The notes under the pieces are model-generated. The model was not told the origin of the DNA and ran no database searches. It saw only the letters and a list, made by a program, of their open reading frames with translations. A stretch of 64,000 nt of DNA from Candidatus Auribacterota bacterium (GTDB taxonomy: Bacteria > Auribacterota > Ancaeobacteria > Ancaeobacterales > Ancaeobacteraceae), in NCBI GenBank assembly GCA_022711655.1, contig JAKLEM010000004.1, forward strand, positions 8,182-72,181, read 5' to 3'. Below, one piece after another: positions 10,039 to 25,326 of the stretch (position 1 is the first letter of the stretch; every line of letters begins with the position of its first letter). The translations under genes and the position numbers were made by a program.

Positions 10039-10070
10039 CGCAGGGTACAGGCATGCCTGTGCCCTACCCC
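10039..10070. repeat. 32-nt GC-rich palindromic REP-like element, copy 2
   Basis: CGCAGGGTACAGGCATGCCTGTGCCCTACCCC overlaps the stop codon of the GT4 gene. It is the reverse complement of the 6136-6167 copy, with two C/T differences within the palindrome and one at the element end. Confidence 0.7.
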
Positions 10071-11170
10071 TTCGCAACGACATTCGTGTACAATTCTAAC
10101 GTCTTAGAGATTGTTGCATCCAGCGGAAAACGGGCGGCGGCAGCTGCGCGCGCGCGCCTGCCGAATTCGGCGCGAAGATCGGGGTTGCCGGCGAATCGCA
10201 GGATCGCTGTTGCCAGTTCGCTCGGCGAACGCGGCGGTACCAGGATGCCGGTCGAGTTGTTCTCGACCACTTCGGATATGCCGCCGATGTCTGTCGCTAC
10301 CACCGCTTTTTCCATCATCATCGCTTCGAGGACCGCCAGGCCGAACCCTTCCATGTGCGAGGGCATCGCGAAGATGTCGATAACCGAGAGCGGCCTGCGG
10401 GTGTCGTCGACGCGGTCGACATAGCGGACCGAATCGTCGACGCCGAGCTTTTTCGCGAGCTGTACCAGGCCGGGCTTTATGTCTCCTTCGCCGACGATCA
10501 GGAGCTCGAGGCGGTTGTCGCTCGCGAGCGCCGCGGCGAATGCGGTGATCAGATCTTCATGCCCTTTGACCGTCGAGAGGCGAGCGATGATGCCGACGAC
10601 GGTAGAGTCGCCGCGCAGTCCGTATTCGCGGCGCAGGGCCTGCGGATCGATCCCGGCGGGCCGTTCGGAGAAACGCGCGGTGTCGACGCCGTTGTGGATC
10701 AGCGAGATCTTCTTTTCGGGGATGCCGAGGTCACGCAGGAGATAGTCCTTTACGGGCGTGCTGATCGCGATGACCCGTTCGCCGATGCAGGGGAGGATGC
10801 GCCGCAGCGTCCGCTTCCTGAAGAAGCCGTGATAGGTCGTTACGTGGGGTACGTGTGTCAGCCGCGAGGCGGCCTGCGCGACGACCTGCGTAACGCGGCT
10901 GTTCGAGTGGATGATGTCAATTCTCTGTTCCTTGAGCAGCGTGCAGAGCTGTGGCATGGCGCGGAACGCCTTCGGGCCGAACTCCTGTTTCGTCCTGATA
11001 GCGAGCGGCAATAGCGTGACGCCGCTTCCCCTGAACCGCTCCTCCATGCTGCCGCCGCCCGATGCGACGAATACAGAATGCCCTTCTTTGATGTATCCCC
11101 TGGAGAGCGTCAGGATATACCAGGTGATGCCGCCGATATCGAGGTGGGTGGAGAGGAAGAGGATGTTCAT
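10064..11170 (-). CDS. Glycosyltransferase family 4 (GT-B, retaining type)
   Basis: 368 aa; N-terminus MNILFLSTHLDIGGITWY; C-terminal EGFGLAVLEAMMMEKAVVATDIGGISEVV motif typical of GT4. Confidence 0.85.
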   Translation of the reverse strand: MNILFLSTHLDIGGITWYILTLSRGYIKEGHSVFVASGGGSMEERFRGSGVTLLPLAIRTKQEFGPKAFRAMPQLCTLLKEQRIDIIHSNSRVTQVVAQAASRLTHVPHVTTYHGFFRKRTLRRILPCIGERVIAISTPVKDYLLRDLGIPEKKISLIHNGVDTARFSERPAGIDPQALRREYGLRGDSTVVGIIARLSTVKGHEDLITAFAAALASDNRLELLIVGEGDIKPGLVQLAKKLGVDDSVRYVDRVDDTRRPLSVIDIFAMPSHMEGFGLAVLEAMMMEKAVVATDIGGISEVVENNSTGILVPPRSPSELATAILRFAGNPDLRAEFGRRARAAAAARFPLDATISKTLELYTNVVAKG

Positions 11171-11218
11171 TTAGGTTGCCATTGGCCGATCAGGTTTCGA
11201 GAAGGAAGTGATTGCTTG

Positions 11219-11376
11219 GCAGCGGGGCCTGACATAGCAGCACTCTTTCAGCATCGCTCGGGTCCCTCCGGCGGGGTCCCTCGCTCGGCGAGAATTTCTG
11301 CGCGCCGACGTTCGTCGGCGACCAAGCCGCAGAAATTCTCAACGTGCTGAAAGAATGCTGCCATGTCACCCACTGC
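11219..11376. repeat. 158-nt nested-hairpin element (family 1), copy A
   Basis: Terminal inverted arms GCAGCGGG / CCCACTGC, a long outer stem, and an inner 13-bp stem GAGAATTTCTGCG / CGCAGAAATTCTC. Inverted homolog at 15555-15713. Confidence 0.85.
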
Positions 11377-11414
11377 GCTTCGCGATCGATAAGGCACTGC
11401 TTTGGAAATGAGAA

Positions 11415-11491
11415 TGGTGGGCGGTACAAGGCTCGAACTTGTGACCCCATGCTTGTAAGGCATGTGCTCTAGCCAACTGAGCTAACCGCCC
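11415..11491 (-). tRNA. tRNA-Val(TAC): tRNA-Val, anticodon TAC, CCA encoded
   Basis: Reverse complement: GGGCGGTTAGCTCAGTTGGCTAGAGCACATGCCTTACAAGCATGGGGTCACAAGTTCGAGCCTTGTACCGCCCACCA. It has a 7-bp acceptor stem, anticodon loop CTTACAA and a GTTCGAG T-loop. Confidence 0.95.
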
Positions 11492-11521
11492 GTATATGAT
11501 CGTGTGTCAAAAAACAGAGTT

Positions 11522-11549
11522 ACTATAAAGCAAAAAAGGCGTTAGTCAA
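11522..11549 (-). promoter_or_regulatory. Sigma70-like promoter candidate for tRNA-Val
   Basis: On the minus strand: TTGACT, 16 nt, TATAGT, ending about 30 nt upstream of the mature tRNA 5-prime end. The -35 overlaps the stop of the upstream GT2 gene. Confidence 0.45.
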
Positions 11550-12325
11550 CTTTTTACCGGCGGCTGGCCGGCGGAGCGCTTCATTTCCCAGTACTTCGCG
11601 TAGCTCATGATCTGGTAGAGGCCGCCGAAGTAGGCGAGGATGAAGCCGTAGAAGCCGTCTTTGTAACCCTTTTTCTTTACGTAGGCACGCAGGAACCTGT
11701 CGAAGAACTTGCGCATCGTTTTAGCGAGGCCGATCTTCCGGTTCTCCTTGAACCACTTGCGCGCCTCGAGGGTGGTCTGCGCGTTGAGCTTCTGGACGAA
11801 ATCGTGCAGGTCGCGGTACGAACGGTGTATGATGTCTTTGGTGAGGTGCCCGCAGGTGCCGTCCATGAAGGCGCGGGGATGGACTTCGGTCTCTTCGTAC
11901 TTGAACTCATCCCGCTTGAAGATGCGCACCTTGCCTGCAGGGTACCAGCCGCCGTAGCGGACCCAATAGTCGCCGATATAGGTCTTGAAGGGGATCGTGA
12001 AGCCGTTGTGCGATATCGGCTTGGCGAAGGTGTCGCGGATCTCTTGCGCCAGCTCCGGCGTCACCCGCTCGTCGCAGTCGAGGCTCATCACCCAGTCGTT
12101 CTTCGCCTGCGCGTAGCCGAAATTGCGGTGCCGCCCCTCGATGTCCAGCTTGCGCTGGATCACCCGCGCGCCGAGGCCGCGGGCGATCTCCGCGGTCCTG
12201 TCGGCGCTGAAATCGTCCAGGACGATCACCTCGTCTGCCCAGCTGACGCTCTTAAGGCAGTCTGCGATATCGATCTCCTCGTCTTTTGCCATGATCATGA
12301 TGCTGATAGGGAGCTTTGTTTCCAT
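11546..12325 (-). CDS. Glycosyltransferase family 2 (small, LPS-core type)
   Basis: 259 aa; ISIMIMAKDEEIDIADCLKSVSWADEVIVLDDFSADRT and a DCDE acidic motif. Its ATG shares one base with the upstream TAA (TAATG). Confidence 0.85.
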   Translation of the reverse strand: METKLPISIMIMAKDEEIDIADCLKSVSWADEVIVLDDFSADRTAEIARGLGARVIQRKLDIEGRHRNFGYAQAKNDWVMSLDCDERVTPELAQEIRDTFAKPISHNGFTIPFKTYIGDYWVRYGGWYPAGKVRIFKRDEFKYEETEVHPRAFMDGTCGHLTKDIIHRSYRDLHDFVQKLNAQTTLEARKWFKENRKIGLAKTMRKFFDRFLRAYVKKKGYKDGFYGFILAYFGGLYQIMSYAKYWEMKRSAGQPPVKS

Positions 12326-13470
12326 TAGAATCTCTCCGCTTTCTTGAGTTGGATGATGTGATCGAGTGTCTTGATGTAAGTGATACGGCCCGTTACGTCA
12401 TTTCCTGTCCCGCGGCAATAGGCCGGACAACCGTGAATAGGATAGAAGGATGCCACCGATTTTGCAAGAGGACTTTCGAACGCCAGGGCGAGATCATACG
12501 GTTTTTTGCGCTTCGTGATGATCCTCCAGAGTGCCGTTATAGTAAGCAGAGCAGGGTTCACGGAGACCACCTTGATGTTTGCCATTTCCGCGATGCCGAG
12601 CTCGCGAAACAGATCGGCTTTGGTGCGCTGGGGGGATACGGCGATATACAGGTGGATATAGCATTCGTTGCGCGCGAGCTGTACTATATCGATGATCGCC
12701 TCCCGGAGACGCCGGCGGTCCGCGACGATCCCGTCTCCTGCCATCGCGAAGATCCTGAGCGGCCGGCCCCAGCGCTCCTCATAGATCTTCTTATTCTTCC
12801 GGAAAAGCTCTTCCTTCCAGGGGACGCGGTCGAGCGACTTGTGCTCGTGATGATAGACGTAGGCGCCGCAGGCTTTGGTACAGCGGTAGCCGGCGGCCTT
12901 TGCGCGCATCGAGAAGTCGGTGTCCTCGAAATAGGCGAGTCCGAACGCCTCGTCGAGATAGCCGATCTTGTCCATGACCTCGCGCTTGACGAGCATCGCG
13001 AAGCCGATGCAGTTGCCGAACTCGACGCAGCTCTCCGCGAGCGGCGCAAGCTTTCGTGCGACGTCGTCGGCGGTCTCGCCGGGGGCCGGCCTGACGCCGA
13101 AGTTGCTGCTCTCCGGGTTTACCAGTCCGATGTCGGGATGCCGGCGGGCGATCCCGAGCATGATCTCGAGGCATTTCTCGGTGAAGAACGTGTCGTTGTT
13201 GAGGATGAGCGCGAACGGGGAAGAGCCGCGCCGCAGTCCCTGGTTGACCGCCTTTCCGAAGCCGAGGTTCTCGGCGTTCTCGATAACCTCGATTTTCACG
13301 AATTCGTTCGGCGAGAAGCCCCGGATAACCGCTTTGGTCGCCGCGTCGCTGGCGTTGTCGACGATGATCAGTGTGACGGGTATCCGCGTGGTCCTGAGTA
13401 TCGACGCGACGCAGTCGCGGGTGAGCTCGGGCTGGTGATAGACGGGGATGACGATGTCGCAGACGCTCAT
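12325..13470 (-). CDS. Glycosyltransferase family 2 with a ~130-aa unassigned C-terminal extension
   Basis: Start at ATG 13470 (MSVCDIVIPVYHQPELTRDC...IIVDNASDA, then YFEDTDFS). The ATGA overlap with the upstream gene supports this start over the 525-aa ORF. Confidence 0.85.
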   Translation of the reverse strand: MSVCDIVIPVYHQPELTRDCVASILRTTRIPVTLIIVDNASDAATKAVIRGFSPNEFVKIEVIENAENLGFGKAVNQGLRRGSSPFALILNNDTFFTEKCLEIMLGIARRHPDIGLVNPESSNFGVRPAPGETADDVARKLAPLAESCVEFGNCIGFAMLVKREVMDKIGYLDEAFGLAYFEDTDFSMRAKAAGYRCTKACGAYVYHHEHKSLDRVPWKEELFRKNKKIYEERWGRPLRIFAMAGDGIVADRRRLREAIIDIVQLARNECYIHLYIAVSPQRTKADLFRELGIAEMANIKVVSVNPALLTITALWRIITKRKKPYDLALAFESPLAKSVASFYPIHGCPAYCRGTGNDVTGRITYIKTLDHIIQLKKAERF

Positions 13471-14369
13471 ACGGACAGTTTCTGATATCTGGTTATCAGT
13501 CCCTGCTGCGCTATGGAGAACATCGTCCGTATCCGGTCGAGATAGGTATGCTTGCTGATGGCGAGCTCGTATCCCCGCCGGGCGATCGCTTCGCGCTCGT
13601 CGTCGTGCTTCAAGTAGTGCTCGGTCAGCTCGAAGAGCTCTTTCGGCGTGCGGTAGACGACGCAGTTCTTCCGATCCTCGAAGATCTCGCCGAACCCGTT
13701 GCCTTTGATCTCGTTGGTGAGGAGCATCGTCCCGCAGCTCATCACTTCGAACATACGCATGTTGACGTCGTTCCTGATCGAGTAGTTGAAGCCGATCTTC
13801 GCCGACGAGTATATCTGCGACATCTTGGTGTGTTTCGCCATCCCGATGGAGCTTTTCGGATAGCGCTGGCGGAGCTGTTCGAGAAGCGTCTTCCGCAGGC
13901 ACTTCTTGCCGTCGGTTCCGACGAAGCCGATATCGAGCGTCTTTTTGATGTCCAGCTTCCGGTGCATCGCAGGTTCGCAGCCGAGCGGGACCCAGTACGT
14001 CTGCCTGCCGATGTGGCGGGCGACCTTTTCCGCTCCCTCTTTTTGCGCGCAGTAGACAAAATCGTAGTGCGGCGCTTGTTCGCAGATCTTCTCGTACGGA
14101 TGCTTCAGGTGCGTGTCGATGGCGAGGAATCCGCAGGGGTGCAGGTATTCCGGGATATCGTATTTGTAGTCGCCATGATCGATCCGGAGGTAGAAGTCGA
14201 ACTCCGGCTTGATCTTGTCGGCGTAGACGGTCCAGAAATGGCGGACGTCGTGCCCGGTCCGCCTGAGGGCGTTCTCGAAATAACAGCCGATCGTGTCGTC
14301 CCGGTCCTTATTGAAGATGATCGCGATCTTGAGGCCGTCTTTTTTCTTCTTCAGGAATTGGAGGAACAT
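13467..14369 (-). CDS. CgeB-family / DUF3880-type glycosyltransferase
   Basis: 300 aa. The C-terminal half (SSAKIGFNYSIRNDVNMRMFEVMSCGTMLLTNE...YRTPKELFELTEHYLKHDDEREAIARRGYELAISKHTY) matches the CgeB-like GT-B C-domain pattern as I recall it. Confidence 0.7.
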   Translation of the reverse strand: MFLQFLKKKKDGLKIAIIFNKDRDDTIGCYFENALRRTGHDVRHFWTVYADKIKPEFDFYLRIDHGDYKYDIPEYLHPCGFLAIDTHLKHPYEKICEQAPHYDFVYCAQKEGAEKVARHIGRQTYWVPLGCEPAMHRKLDIKKTLDIGFVGTDGKKCLRKTLLEQLRQRYPKSSIGMAKHTKMSQIYSSAKIGFNYSIRNDVNMRMFEVMSCGTMLLTNEIKGNGFGEIFEDRKNCVVYRTPKELFELTEHYLKHDDEREAIARRGYELAISKHTYLDRIRTMFSIAQQGLITRYQKLSV

Positions 14370-14379
14370 GTATAAAGCC

Positions 14380-14408
14380 TTGCTCTATAGATTCTTGAAA
14401 GATATTAT
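14380..14408 (+). promoter_or_regulatory. Possible promoter in an AT-rich divergent intergenic region
   Basis: TTGCTC, 17 nt, TATTAT, about 55 nt upstream of the GT9 ATG at 14463. The hexamers are weak. Confidence 0.3.
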
Positions 14409-14462
14409 ATGTGCTATCGTTTGTCAATTAATGTGTCAGGACCCGCTGCAGATTTGAGGAGC

Positions 14463-15533
14463 ATGCAGAACATACTGATCATCAACCCTTTCGGCATCGG
14501 CGATGTCCTTTTCACGACGCCGCTGGTGCGGGCGCTGAAAGAGGGGATCAAACCCGCGCCGCGCATCACATTCGTCTGCAACGCGCGGACCTATCCGATC
14601 ATCGCGGCCAATCCCTGTATCGACCGCGTGATCGTCTTTGATCGCGGCGATTACCGGATGCTCTGGCGGGCGGATAAGGCCGCCTGCGTGAAAAATCTCC
14701 TGGCGTTCGTAGCAGACATAATTAAGTCCGGGTTCGATTGTGTTTTTGACATCTCGCTGTCCCGTCAATTCTCGTTCTTGTCGGCCATAGCGCGCGTACC
14801 CGTCAGGATCGGGTTTGATTACAAGGGGAGAGGGACGTTCCTTACGCACCGTATGGTTTTGGAAGGTTTCTCCGGGAAGCCGATCCCTGACTATTATCTC
14901 TCTCTCTCCCGGCTGGCCGGCGTCGAGCCGGCGGCCGGCGGGCTGCTCGAATTTCCGCTGACGCAGGGATCGGCACGCGAGGCGGATGCTCTGTGGGCGT
15001 CGCATGGCATTACCGGGAACGATCTGCTGGTCGGCATCGTCCCCGGCGGAGGCGACAGCTGGGGGAGCGACGCCGGCCTCAAACGCTGGGCTCCGGAGAA
15101 GTTCGCCGAAGCCGCCGGCCGGCTTGTCGCAGAGCGCCGTGCTATACCGGTGATCTTCGGCAGCAATGGCGAGGCGGAGCTGTGCGACTCGGTGCAACAG
15201 ATGATCGCCGGGAAAAGCGTCGTTGCGACGGGCCTGTCTCTCGGCGGTTTCGCGGCCGCAATGAAGCGCTGTCGTGTTGTGATATGCAACGACGGCGGGC
15301 CGCTGCATATAGCCGTCAGTCAGGGAGTTAAAACGGTTTCTATCTTCGGTCCGGTCGATCCGCTCGTCTATGGCCCGTATCCGGGGACCGATCGTCACGC
15401 CGTGATCACGGCGGCGGTCCCGTGCCGACCCTGTTACCGTAACTTCCGCTATGAAAAATGCGGCAACCGCCGTTGCCTCGGGGAGATATCGCCGGACGCC
15501 GTCTGCGATGCCGCAATCCGGTTGCTTCATTGA
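14463..15533 (+). CDS. Glycosyltransferase family 9 (heptosyltransferase-like), paralog 1
   Basis: MQNILIINPFGIGDVLFTTPLVRALKE; NDGGPLHIAVSQGVKTVSIFGPVDP; C-terminal CRPCYRNFRYEKCGNRRC. Confidence 0.85.
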   Translation: MQNILIINPFGIGDVLFTTPLVRALKEGIKPAPRITFVCNARTYPIIAANPCIDRVIVFDRGDYRMLWRADKAACVKNLLAFVADIIKSGFDCVFDISLSRQFSFLSAIARVPVRIGFDYKGRGTFLTHRMVLEGFSGKPIPDYYLSLSRLAGVEPAAGGLLEFPLTQGSAREADALWASHGITGNDLLVGIVPGGGDSWGSDAGLKRWAPEKFAEAAGRLVAERRAIPVIFGSNGEAELCDSVQQMIAGKSVVATGLSLGGFAAAMKRCRVVICNDGGPLHIAVSQGVKTVSIFGPVDPLVYGPYPGTDRHAVITAAVPCRPCYRNFRYEKCGNRRCLGEISPDAVCDAAIRLLH

Positions 15534-15554
15534 ATCTCTCAGTATGCAACTTGT

Positions 15555-15713
15555 GCAGCGGGTGACAGGGCGTCATTTTTTCAGCACGTTGAGAATTTCT
15601 GCGGCTTGGTCGCCGGCAGAATGCCGGCGCGCAGAAATTCTCGCCGAGCGAGGGTCCCCGCAGGAGGGACCCGAGCGGTGCTGAAAAAGTGGCGTCCTGT
15701 CAGGCCCCGCTGC
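15555..15713. repeat. 159-nt nested-hairpin element (family 1), copy B, inverted relative to copy A
   Basis: Lies between two plus-strand GT9 genes. Its reverse complement aligns end to end with 11219-11376. The outer stem pairs fully (Watson-Crick plus G-U) on the plus strand. Confidence 0.85.
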
Positions 15714-15780
15714 AATGAGTTATTTATTCAAAAATCCCCCTGGTTTGATATAATCCTACCCTTTGGGAAACTGTGACTCT

Positions 15781-17985
15781 ATGATGACAAAAGACATCAA
15801 AAGCATCATGATCGTGAAGCTCAGTTCGATCGGGGACGTTGTCCACGCCCTTCCGATCGCCCGGGCCCTCCGGGACCGCTATCCGCACGCCCATATCACC
15901 TGGGTCGTCAAGCGGAGCTGTAAGGACGTCGTCGAGGGGAACCCCCATATCGACGAGGTGATGATATACGAGCGCGAGCGGTGGGGCGACCCGCGCAACC
16001 TCAGATCGACCGTGCAGGAGATCTGCGCTTTCGCCCGCGAGATACGTTCGCGCCATTTCGACGTGGTCGTTGACCTGCAGGGGCTTTTCTACACCGGCAT
16101 CATCACCTATTTCTCCGGCTGCAAATGGCGGATCGGCTTCAGGAACGCCCGCGAATTCGCCCACATCTTCTACAATCACCGGGTGGCGGTCCCGACGATG
16201 GACATGCACGCCATCGACCGCTATTTCCTGCTTGCCGATGCGGTCGATGCGCATGTGCGGAAGGCCGATTTTACCATCGCCGTGTCGCGGGAGGACAAGG
16301 AGTTCGTCTCCGCCTTCCTGCGTGACGCCGGCGTGTCCGGCGACGGGAAACCGCTTATCGCGATCAACCCGTCGGCGCGCTGGATAACCAAACAGTGGCA
16401 GATGGAGAAGTTCGCCGAGCTTTCAGACGCTCTGGCCCGGCATATGAACGCGACCATCATCCTGATCGGGAGCAACGCCGACCGCGAGCTCGTCGCGCGC
16501 CTTATCGAGAAGATGCACACCGTCCCGGTCAACGCGACGGGCAAGACCTCTCTGAAGCAGCTCGTCGAGCTTCTCGGCCGCGCCGACCTCCTGATCAGCA
16601 ACGATACCGGCCCGATGCATATCGCCTGCGCTGTCGGCACGCCGGTGCTCGGCCTCTTCGGGCCGACCGACCCCCGCCGCACCGGCCCGTTCGGGTTCGG
16701 CCACGCGGTGATCAGAAAGGACATCTTCTGCAGCCCCTGCTTTAAAAAGAGATGCCGGGACTTGATCTGCATGGACCTGCTGACGATCCAGGACGTGATC
16801 TACGCGATAAAGGTGAATCTGGAGAGCGGCAGCTTCGGGAAGGTCAATCTCTCGAAGGTCGGCCGCATTATGCGCAACCTCGACATCGCGGGCCTTCCCC
16901 CGGCGCCGGGGATCGACGTCCTGGTGTTGAGCGACGGCAAGCCCGGGCATGTCAACCAGTCTCTCGGGATGGTCAAGCACGTCGTCGGCCTGAAATACCG
17001 CGTTTCGCGCATCAAGTATAAATCGGAGCTGCACCGCGGCCTTGCGTGGATTGCCGGCGTGTGCGGCATGGGGAAGGTCGGCTTCCTCAGGTGGGCGCTG
17101 AAGCCGGAAAGTTACCGGTCGGTCATGGAGTCGGTGCCGAAAGTAGTCCTGTCGGCCGGCATCTCGGTGGCGGCCATTAACCTCATACTCGGCCGGATCT
17201 TCAAGGCGAAGACGGTGGTGAGCATGAAGCCGGGGCCGATCAGGCTGACCCGCTTCGATCTTGCGATCGTCCCGATGCACGACGAGCCGCCGAAGCTCAA
17301 GACGGTCATCCAGACGCTCGGCGCGCCGAACATCATAGACGACGAGCTCCTGAACGGCGAGCGGGACAAGCTGCTGAAAGATATCCGGTTCACCAAGAAA
17401 GTGAAGATCGGGATACTGATCGGCGGCGAGACGCCTGATTATTTCATTTCAAAAGAAACCATGAACCATCTGATCGAGAATATTAAGAATATGTCGGAAC
17501 GCCTGGACGCCGAAGTCCTCATCGCGACGTCGCGGCGGACGCCCAAACCGCTTGAACGGCTGCTTGTGCACAACTTTAAAAAGAACGAGCGCTGCAAGCT
17601 GTTGTCGATCGCGAGCCACACGAAGGATAACCCGATCCCCGGCATCCTTGGCTTGTGCACGATCATCGTGGTGACGGAGGAAAGCATTTCGATGGTGTCC
17701 GAGGCGGCCAGTTCCGGAAAGTATGTCTTTGTCGTCCGGATCGACCACAAGGATAACCGGCGCTTAAAGCAGGAGCGGACGATCGATATCCTCGCCCAGC
17801 GAGGTTACATCATCAAATCGGACATGTCGCAGTTGTGCGAAACGGTCGCGCAGTTCTGGCCGCCGAAAAGCCCGCCCCGTGTGCTGAACGACACCGAGAC
17901 CGCTTCGGAAGCGCTGATGAAGCTGCTTCGCACGGCGCAGGCGCAGAAAAAGGAGCTCGTGTGCGCCTGCTGCGTGAATGCGTGA
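15781..17985 (+). CDS. Fusion protein: N-terminal GT9 domain plus C-terminal ELM1-family (DUF1022-like) GT-B domain
   Basis: GT9 part: IMIVKLSSIGDVVHALPIARAL, NDTGPMHIACAVGTPVLGLFGPTDP, CSPCFKKRCRDLIC. From about nt 16900: VLVLSDGKPGHVNQSLGM, FDLAIVPMHD, IATSRRTP, VTEESISMVSEAASSGK, resembling the bacterial ELM1 family. Confidence 0.8.
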   Translation: MMTKDIKSIMIVKLSSIGDVVHALPIARALRDRYPHAHITWVVKRSCKDVVEGNPHIDEVMIYERERWGDPRNLRSTVQEICAFAREIRSRHFDVVVDLQGLFYTGIITYFSGCKWRIGFRNAREFAHIFYNHRVAVPTMDMHAIDRYFLLADAVDAHVRKADFTIAVSREDKEFVSAFLRDAGVSGDGKPLIAINPSARWITKQWQMEKFAELSDALARHMNATIILIGSNADRELVARLIEKMHTVPVNATGKTSLKQLVELLGRADLLISNDTGPMHIACAVGTPVLGLFGPTDPRRTGPFGFGHAVIRKDIFCSPCFKKRCRDLICMDLLTIQDVIYAIKVNLESGSFGKVNLSKVGRIMRNLDIAGLPPAPGIDVLVLSDGKPGHVNQSLGMVKHVVGLKYRVSRIKYKSELHRGLAWIAGVCGMGKVGFLRWALKPESYRSVMESVPKVVLSAGISVAAINLILGRIFKAKTVVSMKPGPIRLTRFDLAIVPMHDEPPKLKTVIQTLGAPNIIDDELLNGERDKLLKDIRFTKKVKIGILIGGETPDYFISKETMNHLIENIKNMSERLDAEVLIATSRRTPKPLERLLVHNFKKNERCKLLSIASHTKDNPIPGILGLCTIIVVTEESISMVSEAASSGKYVFVVRIDHKDNRRLKQERTIDILAQRGYIIKSDMSQLCETVAQFWPPKSPPRVLNDTETASEALMKLLRTAQAQKKELVCACCVNA

Positions 17986-18032
17986 GAGGCGCCGTTCCGA
18001 GTCGCTGCGAAAAGAAAGAACGAAAATAAGAC

Positions 18033-20120
18033 ATGAACATATTGCAGATGGTCCCTGAACTGGAGTGCGGCGGCGTCGAGACCGGCACGGTCGACATCGC
18101 GCTGAAGCTCAAAGAGTCCGGCAATAACTCATTTGTCGTGACCAGCGGCGGGTCGCTGGTCGCAAAACTGCGCGACGCGGGCGTCGGCTGCTACCTCCTG
18201 CCTGTCCACAAGAAATCGCTCCTGTCGATGGTCCGCTGTATCATGAAGGTCCGGCGCATCATCCTGCTGGAGCGCATCGAGGTCGTGCATGCGCGCAGCA
18301 GGGTTCCCGCCTGGATCGGCTGGTTTGCGGTAAAAGGGACGCCCGCCCATTTTGTCACCACGGCCCACGGGCACTACAAAACGCACTCGGCCAGCGCGGT
18401 CATGGGGTTCGGAGAGCGGGTGATCGTCCCGAGTTACGCGATACTCGATCACATGGAGAAGGGCTTTGGCGTGGAGAAGGAGCGGCTCCGCCTGATACCG
18501 CGCGGCGTCGACGTCAAGCGTTTTCGGCAGAAAGAGCCCGAGCTCTCGGGCCTTAAGGATTCGTTCAATATCGCGGTGATCGGGAGACTGACGCCGATCA
18601 AGGGGCACGTGTACGTGATCAGGGCGATGGAACAGGTCCTGCGCGAGTGCCCGCACGCCAAGCTGTTCATCGTCGGCGACGCGCACCCGTCGAAATTCCG
18701 CTACAAAGAAGAGCTGCTGAAACTGGTTGAGACGCTCGGCCTGAACGACAAGGTCGTCTTTACCGGGGCGTGCCACGACGTCCCCAAGATATTGGAGAGC
18801 GTCGATCTTGTCGTCCTTGCGACGACGGTCCCCGAGGCGTTCGGCCGGGTGATCATCGAGGCCCAGGCTTCCTGCATACCGGTGATCGGGACGCGCCTGG
18901 GCGGCGTTCTGGATATCATCGATGACGGCGTGACCGGCCTGCTCGTGGAGCCGAAAGATGTCCAGGGCCTGACCGCGGCGATCATCAGGATGATCAAGGA
19001 AGGGGCATTGCGGGAGCTTCTCGTCGACAACGCGTATAAGAAAGTCAGCACGGAGTATACCCTGCAGAAGATGTTCAGTGCGACGCTGCAGGTGTACGAG
19101 GAGGTCGTGCTGACAAAAAAGATACTGATCGTCAAGCTGAGCGCGTTGGGCGATATCGTCCTGATCAGTCCGTCGATACGCGCATTGAAGAACAAGTACC
19201 GTTACGCATCGCTGTCAGTCTTGACGTCAAGCCGTTATAAATCGCTGTTTGCCAATTGCCCTGACATCGACACCATCTTCACGTACGATAAGGAAAAGAA
19301 CGTCGGGGCGATCGTATCGGCGGTGCGCGGGATCCGGCGCGGGCGATACGATATCGCGATCGATTTCCAGAACACCATCAGGTCCCATCTGATCCTGTTC
19401 CTGAGCGGTATCAGGAAGACGGTCGGGTATAACAGGCACGGCGGGCATTTCCTGCTCAGCGACAGCATTACCGCCGACAGCAAGCCGATCGACCCCGTCA
19501 GCCATCAGTTCAAGCTGCTCAGCCTCCTTGGCATTACCCTGGAGGACCGCCGGATCGAGTTCTGGTCTAACGACGACGACGCTCGCATGATCGATAATTT
19601 CCTCAAACGTCACGGCGTTACGAACGGCGAGACCCTTGTCGCCGTCAGCCCGGGCGGAAGTCCCCGCTGGGAGACGAAACGCTGGCCCAAGGAGCGTTTC
19701 GTCGAGCTGATACGCGAGCTCGGGGAGAAGTACCGGGCGAAAATCGTGCTGGTCGGGGGAGAGGATAACGCGGACCTTAAGGAATATTTCGGGCAGCACG
19801 CCGGCGTCCCGTATGTCGATGCTATCGGAGAAACGTCGGTCACGCAGCTTGGCGCCCTGATACGGCGCTGCAGCCTGCTTATCACCGGGGACACCGCGCC
19901 GCTCCACATCGCGGCCGGCTGCGCCGTGCCATTTGTCGCGCTGTTCGGCCCCACCGACCCCCAGCGGCACCTGCCCTCCGGGACCGGCGTTGCGATCACC
20001 AAGAACGTGTCGTGCAGTCCCTGCGGCAAGAGCGTCTGCGAGGTGTTCCTGTGCATGGACAAGATCACCGTCTCCGACGTCCTCGGCCACGCGGACGCCT
20101 TCCTGAAAAAAACGGAGTAG
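18033..20120 (+). CDS. Fusion protein: N-terminal GT4 domain plus C-terminal GT9 domain
   Basis: GT4 part: MNILQMVPELECGGVETGTVD...EAFGRVIIEAQASCIPVIGTRLGGVLDII. From about nt 19120, the GT9 part: KILIVKLSALGDIVLISPSIRALK, GDTAPLHIAAGCAVPFVALFGPTDP, CSPCGKSVCEVFLC. Confidence 0.85.
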   Translation: MNILQMVPELECGGVETGTVDIALKLKESGNNSFVVTSGGSLVAKLRDAGVGCYLLPVHKKSLLSMVRCIMKVRRIILLERIEVVHARSRVPAWIGWFAVKGTPAHFVTTAHGHYKTHSASAVMGFGERVIVPSYAILDHMEKGFGVEKERLRLIPRGVDVKRFRQKEPELSGLKDSFNIAVIGRLTPIKGHVYVIRAMEQVLRECPHAKLFIVGDAHPSKFRYKEELLKLVETLGLNDKVVFTGACHDVPKILESVDLVVLATTVPEAFGRVIIEAQASCIPVIGTRLGGVLDIIDDGVTGLLVEPKDVQGLTAAIIRMIKEGALRELLVDNAYKKVSTEYTLQKMFSATLQVYEEVVLTKKILIVKLSALGDIVLISPSIRALKNKYRYASLSVLTSSRYKSLFANCPDIDTIFTYDKEKNVGAIVSAVRGIRRGRYDIAIDFQNTIRSHLILFLSGIRKTVGYNRHGGHFLLSDSITADSKPIDPVSHQFKLLSLLGITLEDRRIEFWSNDDDARMIDNFLKRHGVTNGETLVAVSPGGSPRWETKRWPKERFVELIRELGEKYRAKIVLVGGEDNADLKEYFGQHAGVPYVDAIGETSVTQLGALIRRCSLLITGDTAPLHIAAGCAVPFVALFGPTDPQRHLPSGTGVAITKNVSCSPCGKSVCEVFLCMDKITVSDVLGHADAFLKKTE

Positions 20121-20124
20121 CCGT

Positions 20125-21180
20125 ATGGATGCGCCGTCCAGGTCGATCGAACGTCCGGGCAGCATACTGATCGTATCGAAGAATTGGCTCGGAGACGCTG
20201 TCTGCGTGACGCCGGCGATACGGGCGATCAAAGAGGCATTCCCGTCGTCGCAGGTCAGCGTCCTGACGCATCCCCGTTGCGCGGATGTGTACCTGCACAA
20301 CCCGTTTGTCGATCATATCGTGCGCTTTCACGAGCGGCGTGGCGTTGCTGCTTTTTTCAGCCTGCTGCGCTTGTGGCTTCTGATGATCTCAGGACGGTAT
20401 GATACCGTTTTTCTTTTTCACCGGTCGCGGTCAAAGGCGCTTGTCGCGGCGCTCGCGGGTATCGGGAACAGGATCGGGTTTGACACCAAGGGCCGCGGCA
20501 TCTTCCTGACCGTGCGCGCGGCGCAGCCGGATGCCGGTGTGCACATGATCGACCACCATCTGCGGCTGCTGGAAGAGTGCGGTATCCCGGCGCGCGGGCG
20601 TGCACCCGTCTATGCTGTCGTTGACGAGGAAATGACGGCGGCGCGGCTGCTGCTGTCCGGGCTCGGTCTCGGGGACGGCGAACGATATATCGTCATCAAC
20701 CCTGGAGGAAACTGGGAACGGAAACGGTGGCCCTGCGAACGGTTCGCCGGCCTTGCCGACAGGCTGGCCGCGGCGCATCCGTGCCGTATCGTGATCACCG
20801 GGGGCGAGCAGGATAGAGCGACGGCGGGTGCGATCGCCGGCCTGATGCGGACGCAGCCGGTTATCGCCGCGGGCAGGACAGACCTCAGGACGCTCGGCGC
20901 GGTCCTGGCGGGCGCGGCGCTTTACATCGGGAACGATTCGGGGCCGACGCACATTGCGGCGGCGGTCGGTGTGCCCGTGATCGCGCTATTCGGCCCGACC
21001 GACCCTGCGCTCACCGGCCCGGCGGGGCGCGGCTCGATACGCGTCATCTCGCGGAGTGCGGGATGCCCCGTCCCGTGTTATAATGCCGGTTGCGTTGACT
21101 ACCGTTGCATTCGCGCGGTATCAGAGGAAGACGTTCTCGAAGCGGCGAGGAGAATCCTGCATGAATATGCCGGCGCATAG
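20125..21180 (+). CDS. Glycosyltransferase family 9, paralog 4
   Basis: SILIVSKNWLGDAVCVTPAIRAIKE; NDSGPTHIAAAVGVPVIALFGPTDP; CPVPCYNAGCVDYRC. Confidence 0.85.
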   Translation: MDAPSRSIERPGSILIVSKNWLGDAVCVTPAIRAIKEAFPSSQVSVLTHPRCADVYLHNPFVDHIVRFHERRGVAAFFSLLRLWLLMISGRYDTVFLFHRSRSKALVAALAGIGNRIGFDTKGRGIFLTVRAAQPDAGVHMIDHHLRLLEECGIPARGRAPVYAVVDEEMTAARLLLSGLGLGDGERYIVINPGGNWERKRWPCERFAGLADRLAAAHPCRIVITGGEQDRATAGAIAGLMRTQPVIAAGRTDLRTLGAVLAGAALYIGNDSGPTHIAAAVGVPVIALFGPTDPALTGPAGRGSIRVISRSAGCPVPCYNAGCVDYRCIRAVSEEDVLEAARRILHEYAGA

Positions 21181-22183
21181 CCGCGATCTCGGCAAGATCC
21201 TGTTTATCACGCTCAGCAATCTAGGGGACGCGGTCCTTACGACGCCCGTCCTGGAGGCGCTCCATCGCGAATTTCCTGCGGCAAAGTTCACCGTCATCGC
21301 CGGCCCGAAATGCGCGGACCTTTTCGAATCGGATCCGATCGTCGAAAAGATCATTGTCTATCAAAAAGATTATTCACTTTTCGACCTGAGCCGCTTTGCC
21401 AGGCGGCTTCGCCGAGAGCGGTTTGACGCGGTGGTCGATCTCAAGCATACCCTGTTCCCGTTCGTTATCGGTTCCCGGCGGTTGACGAAGCTTGTGCGCG
21501 GCACGAACAGGAACACGCATGCCGTCATCGATCATCTCTCGAAGCTGAACTGTGTCGGGCCGATCGATACGGCGCATGCCCGTTTTCGTATCGTCGTTTC
21601 CGAGCGGGCGTGGGAGTTCCAGCGTTCGGTCTGGAACGAGCATCGGGTCAGGGAAGGTGAATGCGTCATCGGCATCAACCCGCACGCCGCGAGTTCCCTC
21701 AAGATGTGGTACCCGTCGAACTTCATCGACTTTATGCGCGCCATCGGCAAGGAACGCCCTGTGCGGTTCGTCATCGTGGGAGGCCGGGACGCCATCGACA
21801 TAAATACGCTCGTCGCGGAAGGATATCCCGACGCGATCAACCTCACCGGCAGGACGACGATCCCGGAGCTCGCGTCGGTCGTCGGTGTCTGCAACCTGCT
21901 CGTAACCAACGACAGCGGACCGCTTCATTTCGCCAGCGCGTTCGGTGTCCCGACCGTCGCCATTTTCGGACCCTCGAATTCGAAGCGCTACGGACCGTTC
22001 GGAAACCCCCATATTATTCTGCAGAAAGATCTCTCGTGCGTCCCGTGCGAGGAGGCACAATGCCCGGCCGGCCAGCGGACCTGCATAGACCTGATCACGG
22101 TCGATGAGGTGCTTGCCGCGGCTCGGAAGCTCCTCCCGCCTTGCGCGGCGGGCGGCGGCGAAGAGCCGATCAACCTTGCGTGA
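21161..22183 (+). CDS. Glycosyltransferase family 9, paralog 5
   Basis: ATG 21161 overlaps the previous gene by 20 nt. KILFITLSNLGDAVLTTPVLEAL; NDSGPLHFASAFGVPTVAIFGPSN; CVPCEEAQCPAGQRTC. Confidence 0.85.
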   Translation: MNMPAHSRDLGKILFITLSNLGDAVLTTPVLEALHREFPAAKFTVIAGPKCADLFESDPIVEKIIVYQKDYSLFDLSRFARRLRRERFDAVVDLKHTLFPFVIGSRRLTKLVRGTNRNTHAVIDHLSKLNCVGPIDTAHARFRIVVSERAWEFQRSVWNEHRVREGECVIGINPHAASSLKMWYPSNFIDFMRAIGKERPVRFVIVGGRDAIDINTLVAEGYPDAINLTGRTTIPELASVVGVCNLLVTNDSGPLHFASAFGVPTVAIFGPSNSKRYGPFGNPHIILQKDLSCVPCEEAQCPAGQRTCIDLITVDEVLAAARKLLPPCAAGGGEEPINLA

Positions 22184-22209
22184 AAGCCAGTCCAACCTGA
22201 GGACCCCAG

Positions 22210-23250
22210 ATGAAACCGAAGATCCTGATCGTTCGTACAGACCGGATGGGCGACGTTCTGCTCAGCACGCCGGCGATACGGGCAGTGCGCCGCGCTGTTC
22301 CGAACGCGCACATCGCCGTGATGGTGAGGCCGTACACAGCCGATATCGTCAGGGACAACCCTGATATCGACGAGGTGATCGTGTATGATAAGGAAGCGCG
22401 CGAGAAAGGGATCTGGGGAAATTTCCGGTTCGCCGTCAGGCTTTTCCTTAAGCGGTTCGACACCGCGCTGATCCTGCACTCGAGCAACCGTTCGGTTCTG
22501 ATACCGTTCCTTGCCGGCATCCGCCTGCGGGCGGGATACGCGCGGCGTCTAGGGTTCCTTCTCTCCCACCCGCTGCCCCCGCTCAAGAACAAAGGCGACA
22601 GGCACGAGATCGTCTACTCGCTGGATGTCCTCGAGAAAGCCGGGTTCCCTGTCGGCGATACCCCGCTCAGGCCGGTTTTTAATGTGAACGCGCGCGACAG
22701 GGAAACGGCTAAACGTCTCTTGGAAAAAAAGGGGGTAAGGCCCGACGATACGATTGTCTGCATCCACGCCGGCGCGAGTTGCCCGTCGAGGTGGTGGCCG
22801 CTGTCGCGGTTCCGCGATGTCGCGCGGCATTTTATCAGAGAAAAAAGGTGCGTTGCGGTCGTAATAGGGGGGAACGCCGAGGTTGAAAGGATGGAAGAGC
22901 TTGCCTGCGGTCTCGGTCCGAAACTGCTCAACTTTACCGGAATGCTGACGATCGGCGAGACGGCCGCCGTGATCGAGCGCAGCGCCGTCCTCATTTCCAA
23001 CGATTCCGGCCCCGTCCATCTCGCGAGCGCCGTCGGGACGCCGGTGGTCGCGATCTTCGGCCGTAAAGACCCCGGGCTTGGCCCGAAGGTGTGGGGGCCG
23101 CTGGGAGCGCACGATATCGTTTTGCAAAAAGATGCGGGATGCGTCACCTGCCTTGCGCACCGGTGCGTCGAAGGCTTCAAATGCCTTCACGCCCTTGGGA
23201 CGCAGGACGTGCTGAAGGCGGCGGACGCCATCGTCTTTCGGAAACCATGA
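22210..23250 (+). CDS. Glycosyltransferase family 9, paralog 6
   Basis: KILIVRTDRMGDVLLSTPAIRAV; NDSGPVHLASAVGTPVVAIFG; CVTCLAHRCVEGFKC. Confidence 0.85.
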   Translation: MKPKILIVRTDRMGDVLLSTPAIRAVRRAVPNAHIAVMVRPYTADIVRDNPDIDEVIVYDKEAREKGIWGNFRFAVRLFLKRFDTALILHSSNRSVLIPFLAGIRLRAGYARRLGFLLSHPLPPLKNKGDRHEIVYSLDVLEKAGFPVGDTPLRPVFNVNARDRETAKRLLEKKGVRPDDTIVCIHAGASCPSRWWPLSRFRDVARHFIREKRCVAVVIGGNAEVERMEELACGLGPKLLNFTGMLTIGETAAVIERSAVLISNDSGPVHLASAVGTPVVAIFGRKDPGLGPKVWGPLGAHDIVLQKDAGCVTCLAHRCVEGFKCLHALGTQDVLKAADAIVFRKP

Positions 23251-25136
23251 GTAAGTTCATACGCTACCTCGACAGCATCTTCATCGGCGCGGCGCTCCTT
23301 CTGGCTGCCGGTTGGAACATCTCGCCGGTCGACAACGACGATTTCTGGCTGCACGTCAAGACGGGCGAGCTTATATGCCGCGGGAAGGCCATCCCGGATC
23401 ACGACATCTTCCTCAATAACCCCAACCCCAATCCGTGGGTCATCCATTCCTGGCTGTCATCTGCAGCATTCTATCAGTTGACGCACCGGTGGGGAGTCGA
23501 CGCCGTTATTGCGGTAAAGGCGGGGGCTGTCGTGTTGGCTCTGGCGCTGCTTTTCGCGCTGTTCCGGTCGGTCTCCGGCAGCGGCTTTGCCGGCGCTGCC
23601 GCATCATTGTCTGTCCTCTTTATGAACGCGGGAAGGATACGGATGTGCCGGCCGATGGCATTCTCGTATCTTCTTTTCGCCGGACTGGCGCTGACGCTCA
23701 CCCTGTACCGTGAGGGCGGGAGACGGCGCCTGTTCTACACGCTGCCGGCGGCATTCTTCTTGTGGGCAAATCTGCACGGCGAATTCTTGATGGGGATCGC
23801 GATGACGGCCCTGTATGCCGCGGGGCTCTTTCTCGATGAGAAGCTTTGCCGCGGCGGCCGGGATCAGTCCTGGAGAACTGCGGCGTGGCTGTCGGCATGC
23901 TGTTTCGCCGCGACGCTCTGCAATCCGTATTTCTGCGGCATCTACACTCATATCTTTTCGTTTCTCCATTCGCCGCTCTACATGGGACGTAATGCGGAGT
24001 GGGCGCCGGTGAACGTGAGGCACTCATGGCAGTTCCTCCTCGTCTGCGCGGCCGCCGCGGCGGCGGGCATCCTGGCTTTTTCGCGGATGCGTCTGGCGTT
24101 CCTTGTCCCGTTCGCCGGGCTTGTTGCCCTGGCCCTGTACAAAAACCGTTTGATCTATTTCGCATCCGTCAGCGCAGCGCTTGTGCTCGTGTCGGCGTAT
24201 CCCGTTATGCGCGAGCGATTGAGAAAAAGATCTGGGCGGTTTTTCGGATGGTTATCGGCCGGCCTGCGGCTTCTGGCCATTGCCGCGGTCCTGCTCGTGA
24301 CGCAGGCGGCCTACGCGCGCGGCATGCTTTTCCGGTGGGGAGTCGTCGAGCGGACTTTCCCTGAGGGAGGCGTCCGTTTCATGCTGGATTGCCGGCCGCA
24401 GGGAAAGATGGTCAACTTCCGGGAATGGGGCGGCTACCTGATCTACCGGCTCTGGCCGGGCTACAAGGTTTTCATCGACGGGCGGGTTCCCGAAGCGGCC
24501 GGCGAAACGACCTGGGCGTATGAGGCGATCGCCGAGGCGAAGCCGGGGTTCGACAGCTATCTGGATCGCCAGGGGATCGACATCGTTTTTGCCGACTATA
24601 TGGTCTTCAGGAGGGCGGCGGACGACCCGATCCAGCCGATCGCGTTTCTCAAAAACTGGGCTCTGGTCTACTGGGACGACACCGCGCAGGTCTATCTGCG
24701 GGACACGCCGGCGAACCATCCGCTCATCGAAAAGTATGCCTATCGCGCCGTGATGCCGTCGAGCGTGACCAACCCGTTTTGCACGCAGGACATCGATGCG
24801 GCGATCGCGGAATGCCGGCGTTCCGTGGAGACGACGCCGTCCGAGCGGGGATACCTGTTCTGGGGTTTTCTTCTCATGCAGCAGGGCCGCCGGGACGAGG
24901 CGATCGGGAAGTTCGGCGAAGCGCTCAAGGTGAATCCCGGAAGCGCCAAAGCGCTGTATAACATCGGGGTTGTGCATATGAAGCAGGGGATGCTGGACGA
25001 TGCCGAGCGATACGTATCGGCGGCGCTGGCGATGGACCGGCGGTACGCCCTTGCGCGCCGAACGCTGGAGAAGATCCGCAACCGGAAGCTGGACCGGGGA
25101 TATCTCGGCAACCCTGCAGACGGCAGCCGCCGATAA
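23247..25136 (+). CDS. Polytopic membrane protein with C-terminal TPR repeats (GT-C-like glycosyltransferase or ligase/polymerase candidate)
   Basis: ATGA overlap with the last GT9. More than 10 predicted TM helices. Acidic first loop NISPVDNDDFWLHVKTGE. C-terminal TPR-like WGFLLMQQGRRDEAIGKFGEALKVNPGSAKALYNIGVVHMKQG. Confidence 0.6.
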   Translation: MSKFIRYLDSIFIGAALLLAAGWNISPVDNDDFWLHVKTGELICRGKAIPDHDIFLNNPNPNPWVIHSWLSSAAFYQLTHRWGVDAVIAVKAGAVVLALALLFALFRSVSGSGFAGAAASLSVLFMNAGRIRMCRPMAFSYLLFAGLALTLTLYREGGRRRLFYTLPAAFFLWANLHGEFLMGIAMTALYAAGLFLDEKLCRGGRDQSWRTAAWLSACCFAATLCNPYFCGIYTHIFSFLHSPLYMGRNAEWAPVNVRHSWQFLLVCAAAAAAGILAFSRMRLAFLVPFAGLVALALYKNRLIYFASVSAALVLVSAYPVMRERLRKRSGRFFGWLSAGLRLLAIAAVLLVTQAAYARGMLFRWGVVERTFPEGGVRFMLDCRPQGKMVNFREWGGYLIYRLWPGYKVFIDGRVPEAAGETTWAYEAIAEAKPGFDSYLDRQGIDIVFADYMVFRRAADDPIQPIAFLKNWALVYWDDTAQVYLRDTPANHPLIEKYAYRAVMPSSVTNPFCTQDIDAAIAECRRSVETTPSERGYLFWGFLLMQQGRRDEAIGKFGEALKVNPGSAKALYNIGVVHMKQGMLDDAERYVSAALAMDRRYALARRTLEKIRNRKLDRGYLGNPADGSRR

Positions 25137-25191: not shown

Positions 25192-25252
25192 TTCACCCTC
25201 TTCTCCGGCCTGGCCGGCGGAGGGGTCTCTTTACGGCGGATTTTCCCTTTAT

Positions 25253-25326
25253 GGGGGTGTAGCTCAATTGGTTAGAGCGCTGCCCTGTCACGGCAGAGGT
25301 CGCGGGTTCGAGTCCCGTCACTCCCG
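25253..25326 (+). tRNA. tRNA-Asp(GTC): tRNA-Asp, anticodon GTC, CCA not encoded
   Basis: GGGGGTGTAGCTCAATTGGTTAGAGCGCTGCCCTGTCACGGCAGAGGTCGCGGGTTCGAGTCCCGTCACTCCCG gives a cloverleaf with anticodon loop CTGTCAC. Confidence 0.95.

Follow-up and report, generated by a model that had tools for sequence, protein, structure and literature searches.

Introduction

Loci that build the core oligosaccharide of lipopolysaccharide (LPS) are known to vary widely in their glycosyltransferase content. In Escherichia coli K-12, four proteins of glycosyltransferase family 9 (GT9) are annotated (WaaC, WaaF, WaaQ and WaaU), all lying within about 15 kb; a review allows for "up to four" heptosyltransferases (PMC5713226), and six have been assigned experimentally in Actinobacillus pleuropneumoniae (PMC3559599). 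In Acinetobacter baumannii, region 1 of the outer-core locus (OCL) of the lipooligosaccharide (LOS) comprises gtrOC1 (Mito_fiss_Elm1 family, hereafter ELM1), gtrOC2 (Glyco_trans_1_2), gtrOC3 (GT2) and pda1/pda2, with the ELM1-family gene alone occurring in every one of the 22 locus types (PMC4172580, PMC10327509). The ELM1 family (PF06258) was described in 2023 as being without known bacterial function (PMC10327509), and these two papers on the A. baumannii OCL are the only literature on bacterial ELM1 that we found. Here we describe a locus of Candidatus Auribacterota bacterium, contained in a stretch of 64,000 nucleotides (the window; positions 8,182 to 72,181 of contig JAKLEM010000004.1, GenBank assembly GCA_022711655.1), in which six GT9 domains stand in a row and one of them is fused to an ELM1 domain. 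An earlier inspection of these letters (the original prediction) had credited E. coli K-12 with three GT9 proteins, a count to which the annotated WaaU has to be added.

With a probability of roughly 0.75, we read this locus as a glycosyltransferase module for the LPS/LOS core oligosaccharide of an uncultured, deep-branching diderm. The reading starts from what was observed of its domain identities, their conservation among relatives, their colinearity with an LPS operon and their fusion partners, and it would offer a first look at probable LPS core building in such a lineage, whose nearest named protein relatives belong to Omnitrophota, Auribacterota and Nitrospirota.

Results

Six divergent GT9 domains in a row

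The plus strand carries g1 (14463-15533, 356 residues), g2 (15781-17985, 734 residues, a GT9-ELM1 fusion), g3 (18033-20120, 695 residues, a GT4-GT9 fusion with its GT9 part at 19113-20114), g4 (20125-21180, 351 residues), g5 (21161-22183, 340 residues, alternative start 21167) and g6 (22210-23250, 346 residues). Their GT9 domains score 68 (g1), 188 (g2), 109 (g3), 147 (g4), 84 (g5) and 104 bits (g6), that is, 68-188 bits against the Pfam PF01075 cut-off of 22 bits, so that the family assignment of the original prediction stands for all six; the GT4 half of g3 scores 126 bits and the ELM1 half of g2 182 bits. The mutual divergence that had been claimed for them was likewise found, and because pairwise identity is only 25-33%, the six domains are old paralogues and no recent duplicates.

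The heptosyltransferase signature D(T/S)(G/A)xxH and the ADP-heptose-contacting residues of WaaC, both taken from earlier work (PMC3559599), were located in each domain. Asp13, Asp261 and His266 (E. coli WaaC numbering) are kept in all six; position 192 is Lys in five and Arg in g6, and position 222 is Asp or Glu in five and Asn in the GT9 half of g3. The signature is canonical in five domains and reads DGGPLH in g1, which keeps Asp13, Lys192, Glu222, Asp261 and His266. Against the NCBIfam equivalog models (cut-offs 185.3 bits for HepI, TIGR02193, and 134.6 bits for HepII, TIGR02195), the HepII threshold is narrowly passed by the GT9 half of g2 (148.9 bits), g4 (141.9 bits) and g6 (136.3 bits), while g1 (92 bits, its best model), the GT9 half of g3 (121 bits) and g5 (103.5 bits) remain below it; with three paralogues above the cut-off of a single "equivalog" model, not every one of them can be WaaF. 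The GT9 half of g2 is the sole domain of the six that prefers the HepI to the HepII model, and also the sole one for which WaaC (81.5 bits) ranks above WaaF (67.8 bits) in the PDB. At E ≤ 0.01, the PDB sequence matches of the six domains are confined to 3TOV (a GT9 protein), WaaF and WaaC, the GT9 half of g3 finding 3TOV and WaaF and its GT4 half 7MI0 and RfaG/WaaG.

Colinearity with an LPS operon of Omnitrophica

The key counterpart of the locus was met among 80 reference loci collected around the nearest GT9 homologues. It is a single-strand operon of Omnitrophica (L069, contig CAMTXH010000006.1) that starts with waaA, lpxK, LpxL-ELM1 (6891-8924), GT4-GT9, GT4, GT9a, GT9b and GT9c, and continues with DUF3108, heptose-7-phosphate kinase, kdsB, pyrG, kdsA and kdsD, the kinase being assigned as D-glycero-beta-D-manno-heptose-7-phosphate kinase (TIGR02198, 390.7 bits against a cut-off of 345). 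The best matches are positional and their order is colinear with the genes of the window: g3 corresponds to the GT4-GT9 fusion (41% identity over all 695 residues), g4 to GT9a (39%), g5 to GT9b (35%), g6 to GT9c (43%), the minus-strand gene gtA to the stand-alone GT4 (38%), and the ELM1 domain of g2 to that of LpxL-ELM1 (34%). In a rough neighbour-joining tree, the GT9 domains form six orthologous groups, four of them with a member from this operon; because these four groups are shared, the expansion of GT9 is older than the divergence from Omnitrophota. The most divergent domain, that of g1, lies in a clade of its own with orthologues from the relatives described below.

Similar company was seen more widely in the reference set, where waaA (31/80), lpxK (32/80) or a GmhB-like domain (36/80) occurs within 10 kb, and linkage to Kdo (3-deoxy-D-manno-oct-2-ulosonic acid) transferase, lipid A or ADP-heptose genes was seen in 44 of the 80 loci. 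By HMM count, none of them exceeds four GT9 domains per 20 kb. The lineage of the window has six, and its GT9 density is therefore at the extreme end of the sampled loci.

Conservation of the module in relatives

The architecture recurs, one gene after another, in three more distant metagenomic relatives (L010, L011 and L012). Identity to g2 is 65% (L010), 57% (L012) and 56% (L011) for their GT9-ELM1 proteins. For each of the ten transferase genes, the best match in one or other of the relatives is the gene in the corresponding position, at 40-80% identity, from which it follows that all six GT9 paralogues have been maintained; to judge from these comparisons, the six-GT9 layout is ancestral to the lineage and has been maintained by selection. 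The contig of L011 is truncated: its edge holds the C-terminus of the g1 orthologue, so that it counts five GT9 domains and a truncated sixth. The genes flanking the module are also kept in L010. Two further features of these relatives may be recorded. At 6581-8617 of L011, the orthologues of g5 and g6 are joined into one GT9-GT9 protein of 678 residues, a third kind of fusion in the module. Directly upstream of GT9-ELM1, L011 (403-1182) and L012 (8267-9091) carry a PF01522 polysaccharide deacetylase gene, which the lineage of the window does not have.

Evidence against the LPS reading, and a non-LPS glycan as the alternative

Several results weigh against assigning this module to the LPS core. 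The link to LPS depends on identities of 35-43% and on how the genes are ordered in a different phylum, and waaA, lpx, kds, gmh and hld genes were found neither in the window nor in the parts of the L010, L011 and L012 loci that were read. The HepI cut-off is reached by none of the six domains (167.5 bits for the GT9 half of g2, 54-104 bits for the others); g1, g5 and the GT9 half of g3 stay below every NCBIfam heptosyltransferase cut-off; and none of the six groups with WaaC, WaaF, WaaQ or WaaU of E. coli in the neighbour-joining tree. CAZy lists a non-heptose activity within GT9, and donor specificity is not legible from sequence. The ELM1 domain has a fold match of a generic kind (UDP-GlcNAc 2-epimerases, TreT, GT1), so that even its transferase activity is putative, and the last gene, g7, is not at this position in L010, L011 or L012.

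These results bear on the alternative that the product is a surface glycan or glycolipid other than LPS, for example a membrane glycolipid, a polymer of the capsule type or a primer for exopolysaccharide, and that some or all of the GT9 enzymes use a donor other than ADP-heptose or an acceptor other than Kdo-lipid A. Such a product would suit a module that is detached, in the lineage of the window, from every lipid A, Kdo and heptose gene, and in which three GT9 domains lie under all heptosyltransferase equivalog cut-offs; GT4, GT2 and Glyco_trans_1_2 are moreover generic families that occur in exopolysaccharide systems, and EpsE and PEP-CTERM glycosyltransferases are among the best partial NCBIfam matches of the locus proteins. 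However, the orthologues of these very genes are colinear inside an operon running from waaA and lpxK to the kds genes, proteins of the ELM1 clade are joined to LpxL or LpxK, and each of the six GT9 domains retains the heptosyltransferase signature when the variant of g1 is counted. A Pfam scan of the other large open reading frames (ORFs) of the window found no initiating phosphoglycosyltransferase, flippase, polymerase, chain-length regulator or polysaccharide export gene. The same scan found no kds or gmh/hld gene, and it agrees with the original prediction that waaA, lpx genes, heptose-nucleotide genes and a Wzx/Wzy/ABC exporter are missing from the window. The capsule-like option that this prediction had offered gains no support from the want of an exporter, since a core flipped by MsbA needs none. 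Taken together, we consider a non-LPS glycan improbable, and retain the LPS/LOS core as the preferred product.

The GT9-ELM1 fusion protein

In g2, the GT9 domain (about 15781-16830) is followed by an ELM1 domain (about 16906-17979, or 16873-17985 when drawn more widely), the latter scoring 182 bits against a PF06258 cut-off of 27 and belonging to clan CL0113 (GT-B). Neither a sequence search of the PDB nor NCBIfam gave a match to it, and Foldseek gave it no specific fold assignment: all matches of its AlphaFold2 model (predicted local distance difference test score, pLDDT, 87.7) are GT-B proteins. The model indicates the two-Rossmann GT-B fold. An exhaustive search with the ELM1 domain returned 2,660 representative clusters, and the 150 best-scoring of these representatives include 86 LpxL-ELM1 proteins, 2 LpxK-ELM1 proteins, 57 stand-alone proteins and 1 GT9-ELM1 protein, which is that of the window lineage. 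The GT9-ELM1 fusion is rare, its eight clusters at 90% identity collapsing into a single cluster at 50% identity. Because ELM1 is fused across lineages to LpxK, to LpxL or to a HepI-like GT9 domain, it probably acts at the lipid A-Kdo-proximal region, and these fusions provide a functional lead for the bacterial ELM1/DUF1022 family, whose reaction would belong to the lipid A-Kdo/inner-core stage. The simple view that ELM1 replaces WaaA was ruled out, since the Omnitrophica operon has waaA alongside LpxL-ELM1.

The closest outside relatives of the GT9 domain of g2 are fused in their turn to a GmhB heptose-1,7-bisphosphate phosphatase domain, as in P0016 (46% identity) and in a Nitrospirota locus (L016; NF006506, 179.8 bits against a cut-off of 178); in the species-representative genome collection, which contains no close relative of the lineage, the best match (45% identity) is from Nitrospirales. 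In loci of Nitrospira/Nitrospirota (L016, L017 and others in L013-L047), a GT9-GmhB fusion is commonly followed by two more GT9 genes and, 4-7 kb downstream, by a fourth GT9, giving three to four GT9 domains each, often with waaA or lpxK close by.

Minus-strand genes and the g1-g2 spacer

Four transferase genes are encoded on the minus strand. The product of gtA (10064-11170, 368 residues) is a GT4 protein, hence a retaining GT-B enzyme (Pfam Glycos_transf_1, 128 bits; Glyco_transf_4, 105 bits), with 47% identity to its positional orthologue in L010. A short GT2 protein of 259 residues is encoded by gtB (11546-12325; Glycos_transf_2, 53 bits), the most conserved gene of the locus, with 80% identity to the orthologue in L010 and 61% to that in L012; its product may resemble glucosyltransferases of the WaaE/LgtF type. 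The third gene, gtC (12325-13470, 381 residues; Glycos_transf_2, 76 bits), encodes a GT2 domain with a C-terminal extension of ~150 residues and is 45% identical to the orthologues in both L010 and L012. The fourth, gtD (13467-14369, 300 residues), encodes a CgeB-like Glyco_trans_1_2 protein of the GT-B clan (PF13524, 93 bits), the Pfam family to which GtrOC2 of the A. baumannii LOS outer-core locus belongs (PMC4172580).

The domain set of the original prediction, with GT4, GT2, GT2 and a CgeB-like protein on the minus strand and GT9, GT9-ELM1, GT4-GT9 and three more GT9 proteins on the plus strand, was reproduced throughout by Pfam. Its total of 11 glycosyltransferase domains is correct if ELM1, of the GT-B clan, and g7, with its GT-C fold, are omitted, and rises to as many as 13 transferase-type domains if both are included. 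The short overlaps at gene junctions also proved real, four being found: 1 nucleotide between gtB and gtC, which have base 12325 in common, 4 between gtC and gtD, 20 or 14 between g4 and g5, and 4 between g6 and g7.

Between g1 and g2 lies a nested hairpin of ~170 nucleotides (15550-15720; folding energy -115.5 kcal/mol, z = -12), and 3' of it a promoter-like site (15727-15754) of the form TTCAAA-16-TATAAT with an upstream TG; other such sites in the locus are at 11549-11522, near the tRNA-Val gene and gtB, and at 14427-14399, near gtD. The hairpin is not present in L010, and it occupies the slot in which L011 and L012 have their deacetylase gene, no remnant of a PF01522 deacetylase having been found in the g1-g2 spacer. 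A repeated mobile element was considered and rejected, as the hairpin has no second copy in the window. An exact-pattern scan of metagenomes for the hairpin gave no match, though it is little informative, having missed the source contig too.

The membrane protein g7 and the question of protein glycosylation

The last gene of the row, g7 (23247-25136, plus strand), encodes a membrane protein of 629 residues with a periplasmic domain and C-terminal TPR repeats, the latter being its only Pfam matches. Its membrane domain finds no Pfam family even at E ≤ 10, and no CAZy-type family was assigned to it. The AlphaFold2 model (pLDDT 91; predicted template modelling score, pTM, 0.89) has as its top Foldseek matches C-mannosyltransferase DPY19, the oligosaccharyltransferases STT3, PglB and AglB, and arabinosyltransferase AftA (E 4e-8 to 2e-4; template modelling scores 0.42-0.54). 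As modelled, g7 is built like a GT-C enzyme, having a multi-helix membrane core, a periplasmic domain and a conserved acidic residue in the first periplasmic loop; this residue, Asp32, just past the first transmembrane helix, is invariant across 25 homologues, and ~25 homologues also share invariant Trp173, Asn175 and Asp411. To judge from the model, it looks like a GT-C family that lacks a Pfam model of its own. The polytopic TPR membrane protein of the original prediction was rightly described as to its repeats and its membrane location; what has to be added is the fold of a GT-C glycosyltransferase.

The homologues of g7, with 40-47% identity (46% for a match from Candidatus Auribacterota), sit in unrelated neighbourhoods without GT9 neighbours. 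Because its slot varies in the relatives and its homologues lie in such neighbourhoods, g7 is a local, lineage-specific addition outside the conserved module. What fills the space from the last GT9 gene to tRNA-Asp is variable cargo: the window has g7 there, L012 a Fic-domain gene, and L011 genes for a radical-SAM protein and a glycoamylase; in L010 the slot is empty.

It is on g7 that an alternative in terms of protein glycosylation mainly turns, whereby the GT9 enzymes would heptosylate proteins in the manner of TibC/AAH, or g7 would transfer a lipid-linked glycan to periplasmic proteins. The affinity of its model to DPY19, STT3, PglB and AglB, its TPR repeats, which are also present in some enzymes named in databases as being of the protein O-mannosyltransferase type, and the 4-nucleotide overlap of its gene with the last GT9 gene are in line with such a role. 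Yet g7 is missing from the same slot in all three relatives, its homologues have no GT9 neighbours, and neither an initiating phosphoglycosyltransferase or flippase nor an autotransporter or other obvious acceptor gene lies nearby. Furthermore, none of the six GT9 domains matches a TibC-like chain at E ≤ 0.01 in the PDB copy searched, in which a TibC chain is presumed to be present. The protein-glycosylation option of the original prediction is accordingly left without support, and we regard it as very improbable.

Gene calls, tRNA genes and surroundings

Four independent public assemblies of this metagenome-derived sequence have identical gene calls, so that the locus is no assembly artefact; the public calls give 381 residues for gtC and 338 or 340 residues for g5. 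The longest mechanical ORFs (12325-13902, 21056-22183, 23091-25136 and 14409-15533) overrun the true 5' starts by 18-144 codons, and an antisense ORF of 364 residues (14436-15530) mirrors g1 and has no family match; over-long frames and antisense frame alike are artefacts typical of high-GC DNA.

ARAGORN and Rfam agree on a tRNA-Val gene (anticodon TAC) within the locus, between gtA and gtB (11415-11491, minus strand; Rfam 69.6 bits), and on a tRNA-Asp gene (GTC) as its right-hand landmark (25252-25327, plus strand; Rfam 72.9 bits), both placed as previously proposed; no other Rfam match was obtained within the locus. In L010 and L012 both are at the same positions, and in the truncated L011 only tRNA-Asp is seen, which follows the last GT9 gene in all three. 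The two tRNA genes are conserved landmarks in the relatives and no marks of an inserted island. A tRNA-bounded genomic island was ruled out by the GC content of the locus, which equals that of its surroundings (flat at 0.58-0.62), together with the synteny of flanking genes and both tRNA genes.

The window also encodes a secretin, a Ser/Thr kinase, the glycine-cleavage system, LipB, thymidine phosphorylase, a leucine-rich repeat protein, glutamate synthase, a protein like pyruvate phosphate dikinase, phosphofructokinase, an amylase-family enzyme, a V-type ATPase, TPR proteins, MscS, DUF2207 and LemA. As a housekeeping protein, GcvPA of the window has its matches, at about 55% identity, spread over mixed phyla. 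The secretin gene (1-720) indicates an outer membrane. In this apparently diderm, secretin-encoding bacterium, a V/A-type ATPase operon with genes for subunits A and B and for a protein like the I subunit occupies 40281-47675, the ORFs at 44486-45859 and 47715-49916 that flank the ATPase genes having no Pfam match. A stand-alone LPG_synthase_C domain (the C-terminal domain of MprF), lacking the flippase half, is encoded at 52655-53623 and is followed by two large TPR proteins (53457-57055).

Discussion

The results described above point to a module that would extend the core oligosaccharide on lipid A, and a working scheme can be proposed in which the donor, the acceptor, the order of the steps and the structure of the glycan are inferred. 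Kdo-lipid A would be supplied by genes elsewhere in the genome and lengthened, sugar by sugar, at the cytoplasmic face of the inner membrane by soluble or peripheral GT-B/GT-A enzymes, up to six GT9 domains each adding one heptose from ADP-heptose at differing positions. The best candidate for the first, Kdo-directed step is the GT9 half of g2, because it alone prefers the HepI model and ranks WaaC above WaaF. The two GT4 domains, the two GT2 proteins, the Glyco_trans_1_2 protein and ELM1 may add non-heptose residues or branches, ELM1 probably acting beside the lipid A-Kdo region, and the two fusion proteins, together with the overlapping genes, may hold successive steps together. The finished lipid A-core would then be flipped and exported through the general MsbA/Lpt machinery, so that no Wzx, Wzy or ABC exporter would be needed in the locus. 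As for g7, its role may be a decoration made in the periplasm, or it may have another target. The original prediction had taken acceptor and donor to be unknown; this is borne out in so far as the window has no such genes, but both become inferable from the Omnitrophica operon, from the GmhB fusions and from the ADP-heptose residues that have been kept.

How many heptoses such a core would contain is a separate matter. Within the LPS reading, the core might be an ordinary one of two to four heptoses, with some of the GT9 enzymes being alternative, condition-specific or drifted to other sugars. The deviating residues (DGGPLH in g1, Arg192 in g6 and Asn222 in the GT9 half of g3), the mere four GT9 domains of the Omnitrophica operon, and the promoter-like site and large hairpin between g1 and g2-g7, suggesting separate regulation, would all fit this more modest version. 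It has to contend with the fact that six paralogues are kept as distinct positional orthologues although the GT9-ELM1 proteins of the relatives are only 56-65% identical, that all six keep Asp13, Asp261 and His266, and that six functional heptosyltransferases in a single organism have a precedent (PMC3559599); we hold an ordinary core to be unlikely, though worth bearing in mind. The original prediction of an unusually heptose-rich or non-canonical core is fair when measured against textbook enterics, and it agrees with the colinear operon, the GmhB fusions and the intact signatures; as something without parallel it fails, the precedent being that of A. pleuropneumoniae. We further speculate, tentatively and with the odds rather against us, that three things hold jointly: an LOS core of six or more heptoses, ELM1 as an unrecognised lipid A-Kdo-proximal enzyme, and g7 as a new periplasmic LPS-decorating family. 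If this is true, the recurrent fusion of ELM1 to LpxL, LpxK or a HepI-like GT9 makes its function directly testable.

The proposed module is worth comparing with the systems described in other bacteria. The Omnitrophica operon, itself known from its genes alone, shares with it, in order, counterparts of ELM1, GT4-GT9, GT4 and three GT9 proteins. There, however, ELM1 is fused to LpxL, whereas in the window it is fused to GT9; the number of GT9 domains is four instead of six; the GT2 pair and the Glyco_trans_1_2 protein were not found; and the transferases share their operon with genes for lipid A, Kdo and heptose, whereas those of the window lineage stand alone between thymidine phosphorylase and tRNA-Asp. 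The A. baumannii OCL resembles the locus, by family membership, in having the same uncommon set of Pfam families, with a deacetylase as in L011 and L012. In contrast, its ELM1 proteins are stand-alone and no GT9 family appears in the OCL gene tables; the A. baumannii core is not known to contain heptose. With the bacterial autotransporter heptosyltransferases TibC and AAH, which use ADP-heptose as the donor, the locus shares membership of GT9, but not an autotransporter partner gene in the window or a PDB sequence match to a TibC-like chain. The heptose-rich cores of A. pleuropneumoniae and Aeromonas (WaaC, WaaF, WahC, WahD, WahF and others) have six heptosyltransferases acting in one core, some of them with variant signatures such as D(T/G)(G/S)xxH (PMC3559599), of which the DG form recurs in g1; the activities of A. 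pleuropneumoniae, whose genes are given by locus tag, were assigned by experiment, whereas the six GT9 domains of the window are adjacent and their activities are inferred.

Finally, the waa region of E. coli K-12 (rfaD-waaFCL, waaQGPSBOJYZU and waaA) likewise consists of divergent operons rich in GT9 and GT4 with the signature residues in common, and it extends Kdo-lipid A at the cytoplasmic face without a dedicated exporter, as is proposed here. Unlike the waa region, the window packs six GT9 domains into <9 kb, two of them in fusion proteins, and dispenses with waaA, rfaD, waaL and the core kinases WaaP/WaaY, while having ELM1, Glyco_trans_1_2 and GT2 in addition. The description as unusually heptose-rich is apt beside such textbook enterics and has its precedent elsewhere. 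Altogether, a run of six GT9 domains is a rarity, as is the joining of GT9 to ELM1, whereas the kind of system is a familiar one, that of an LPS core locus of unusual density.

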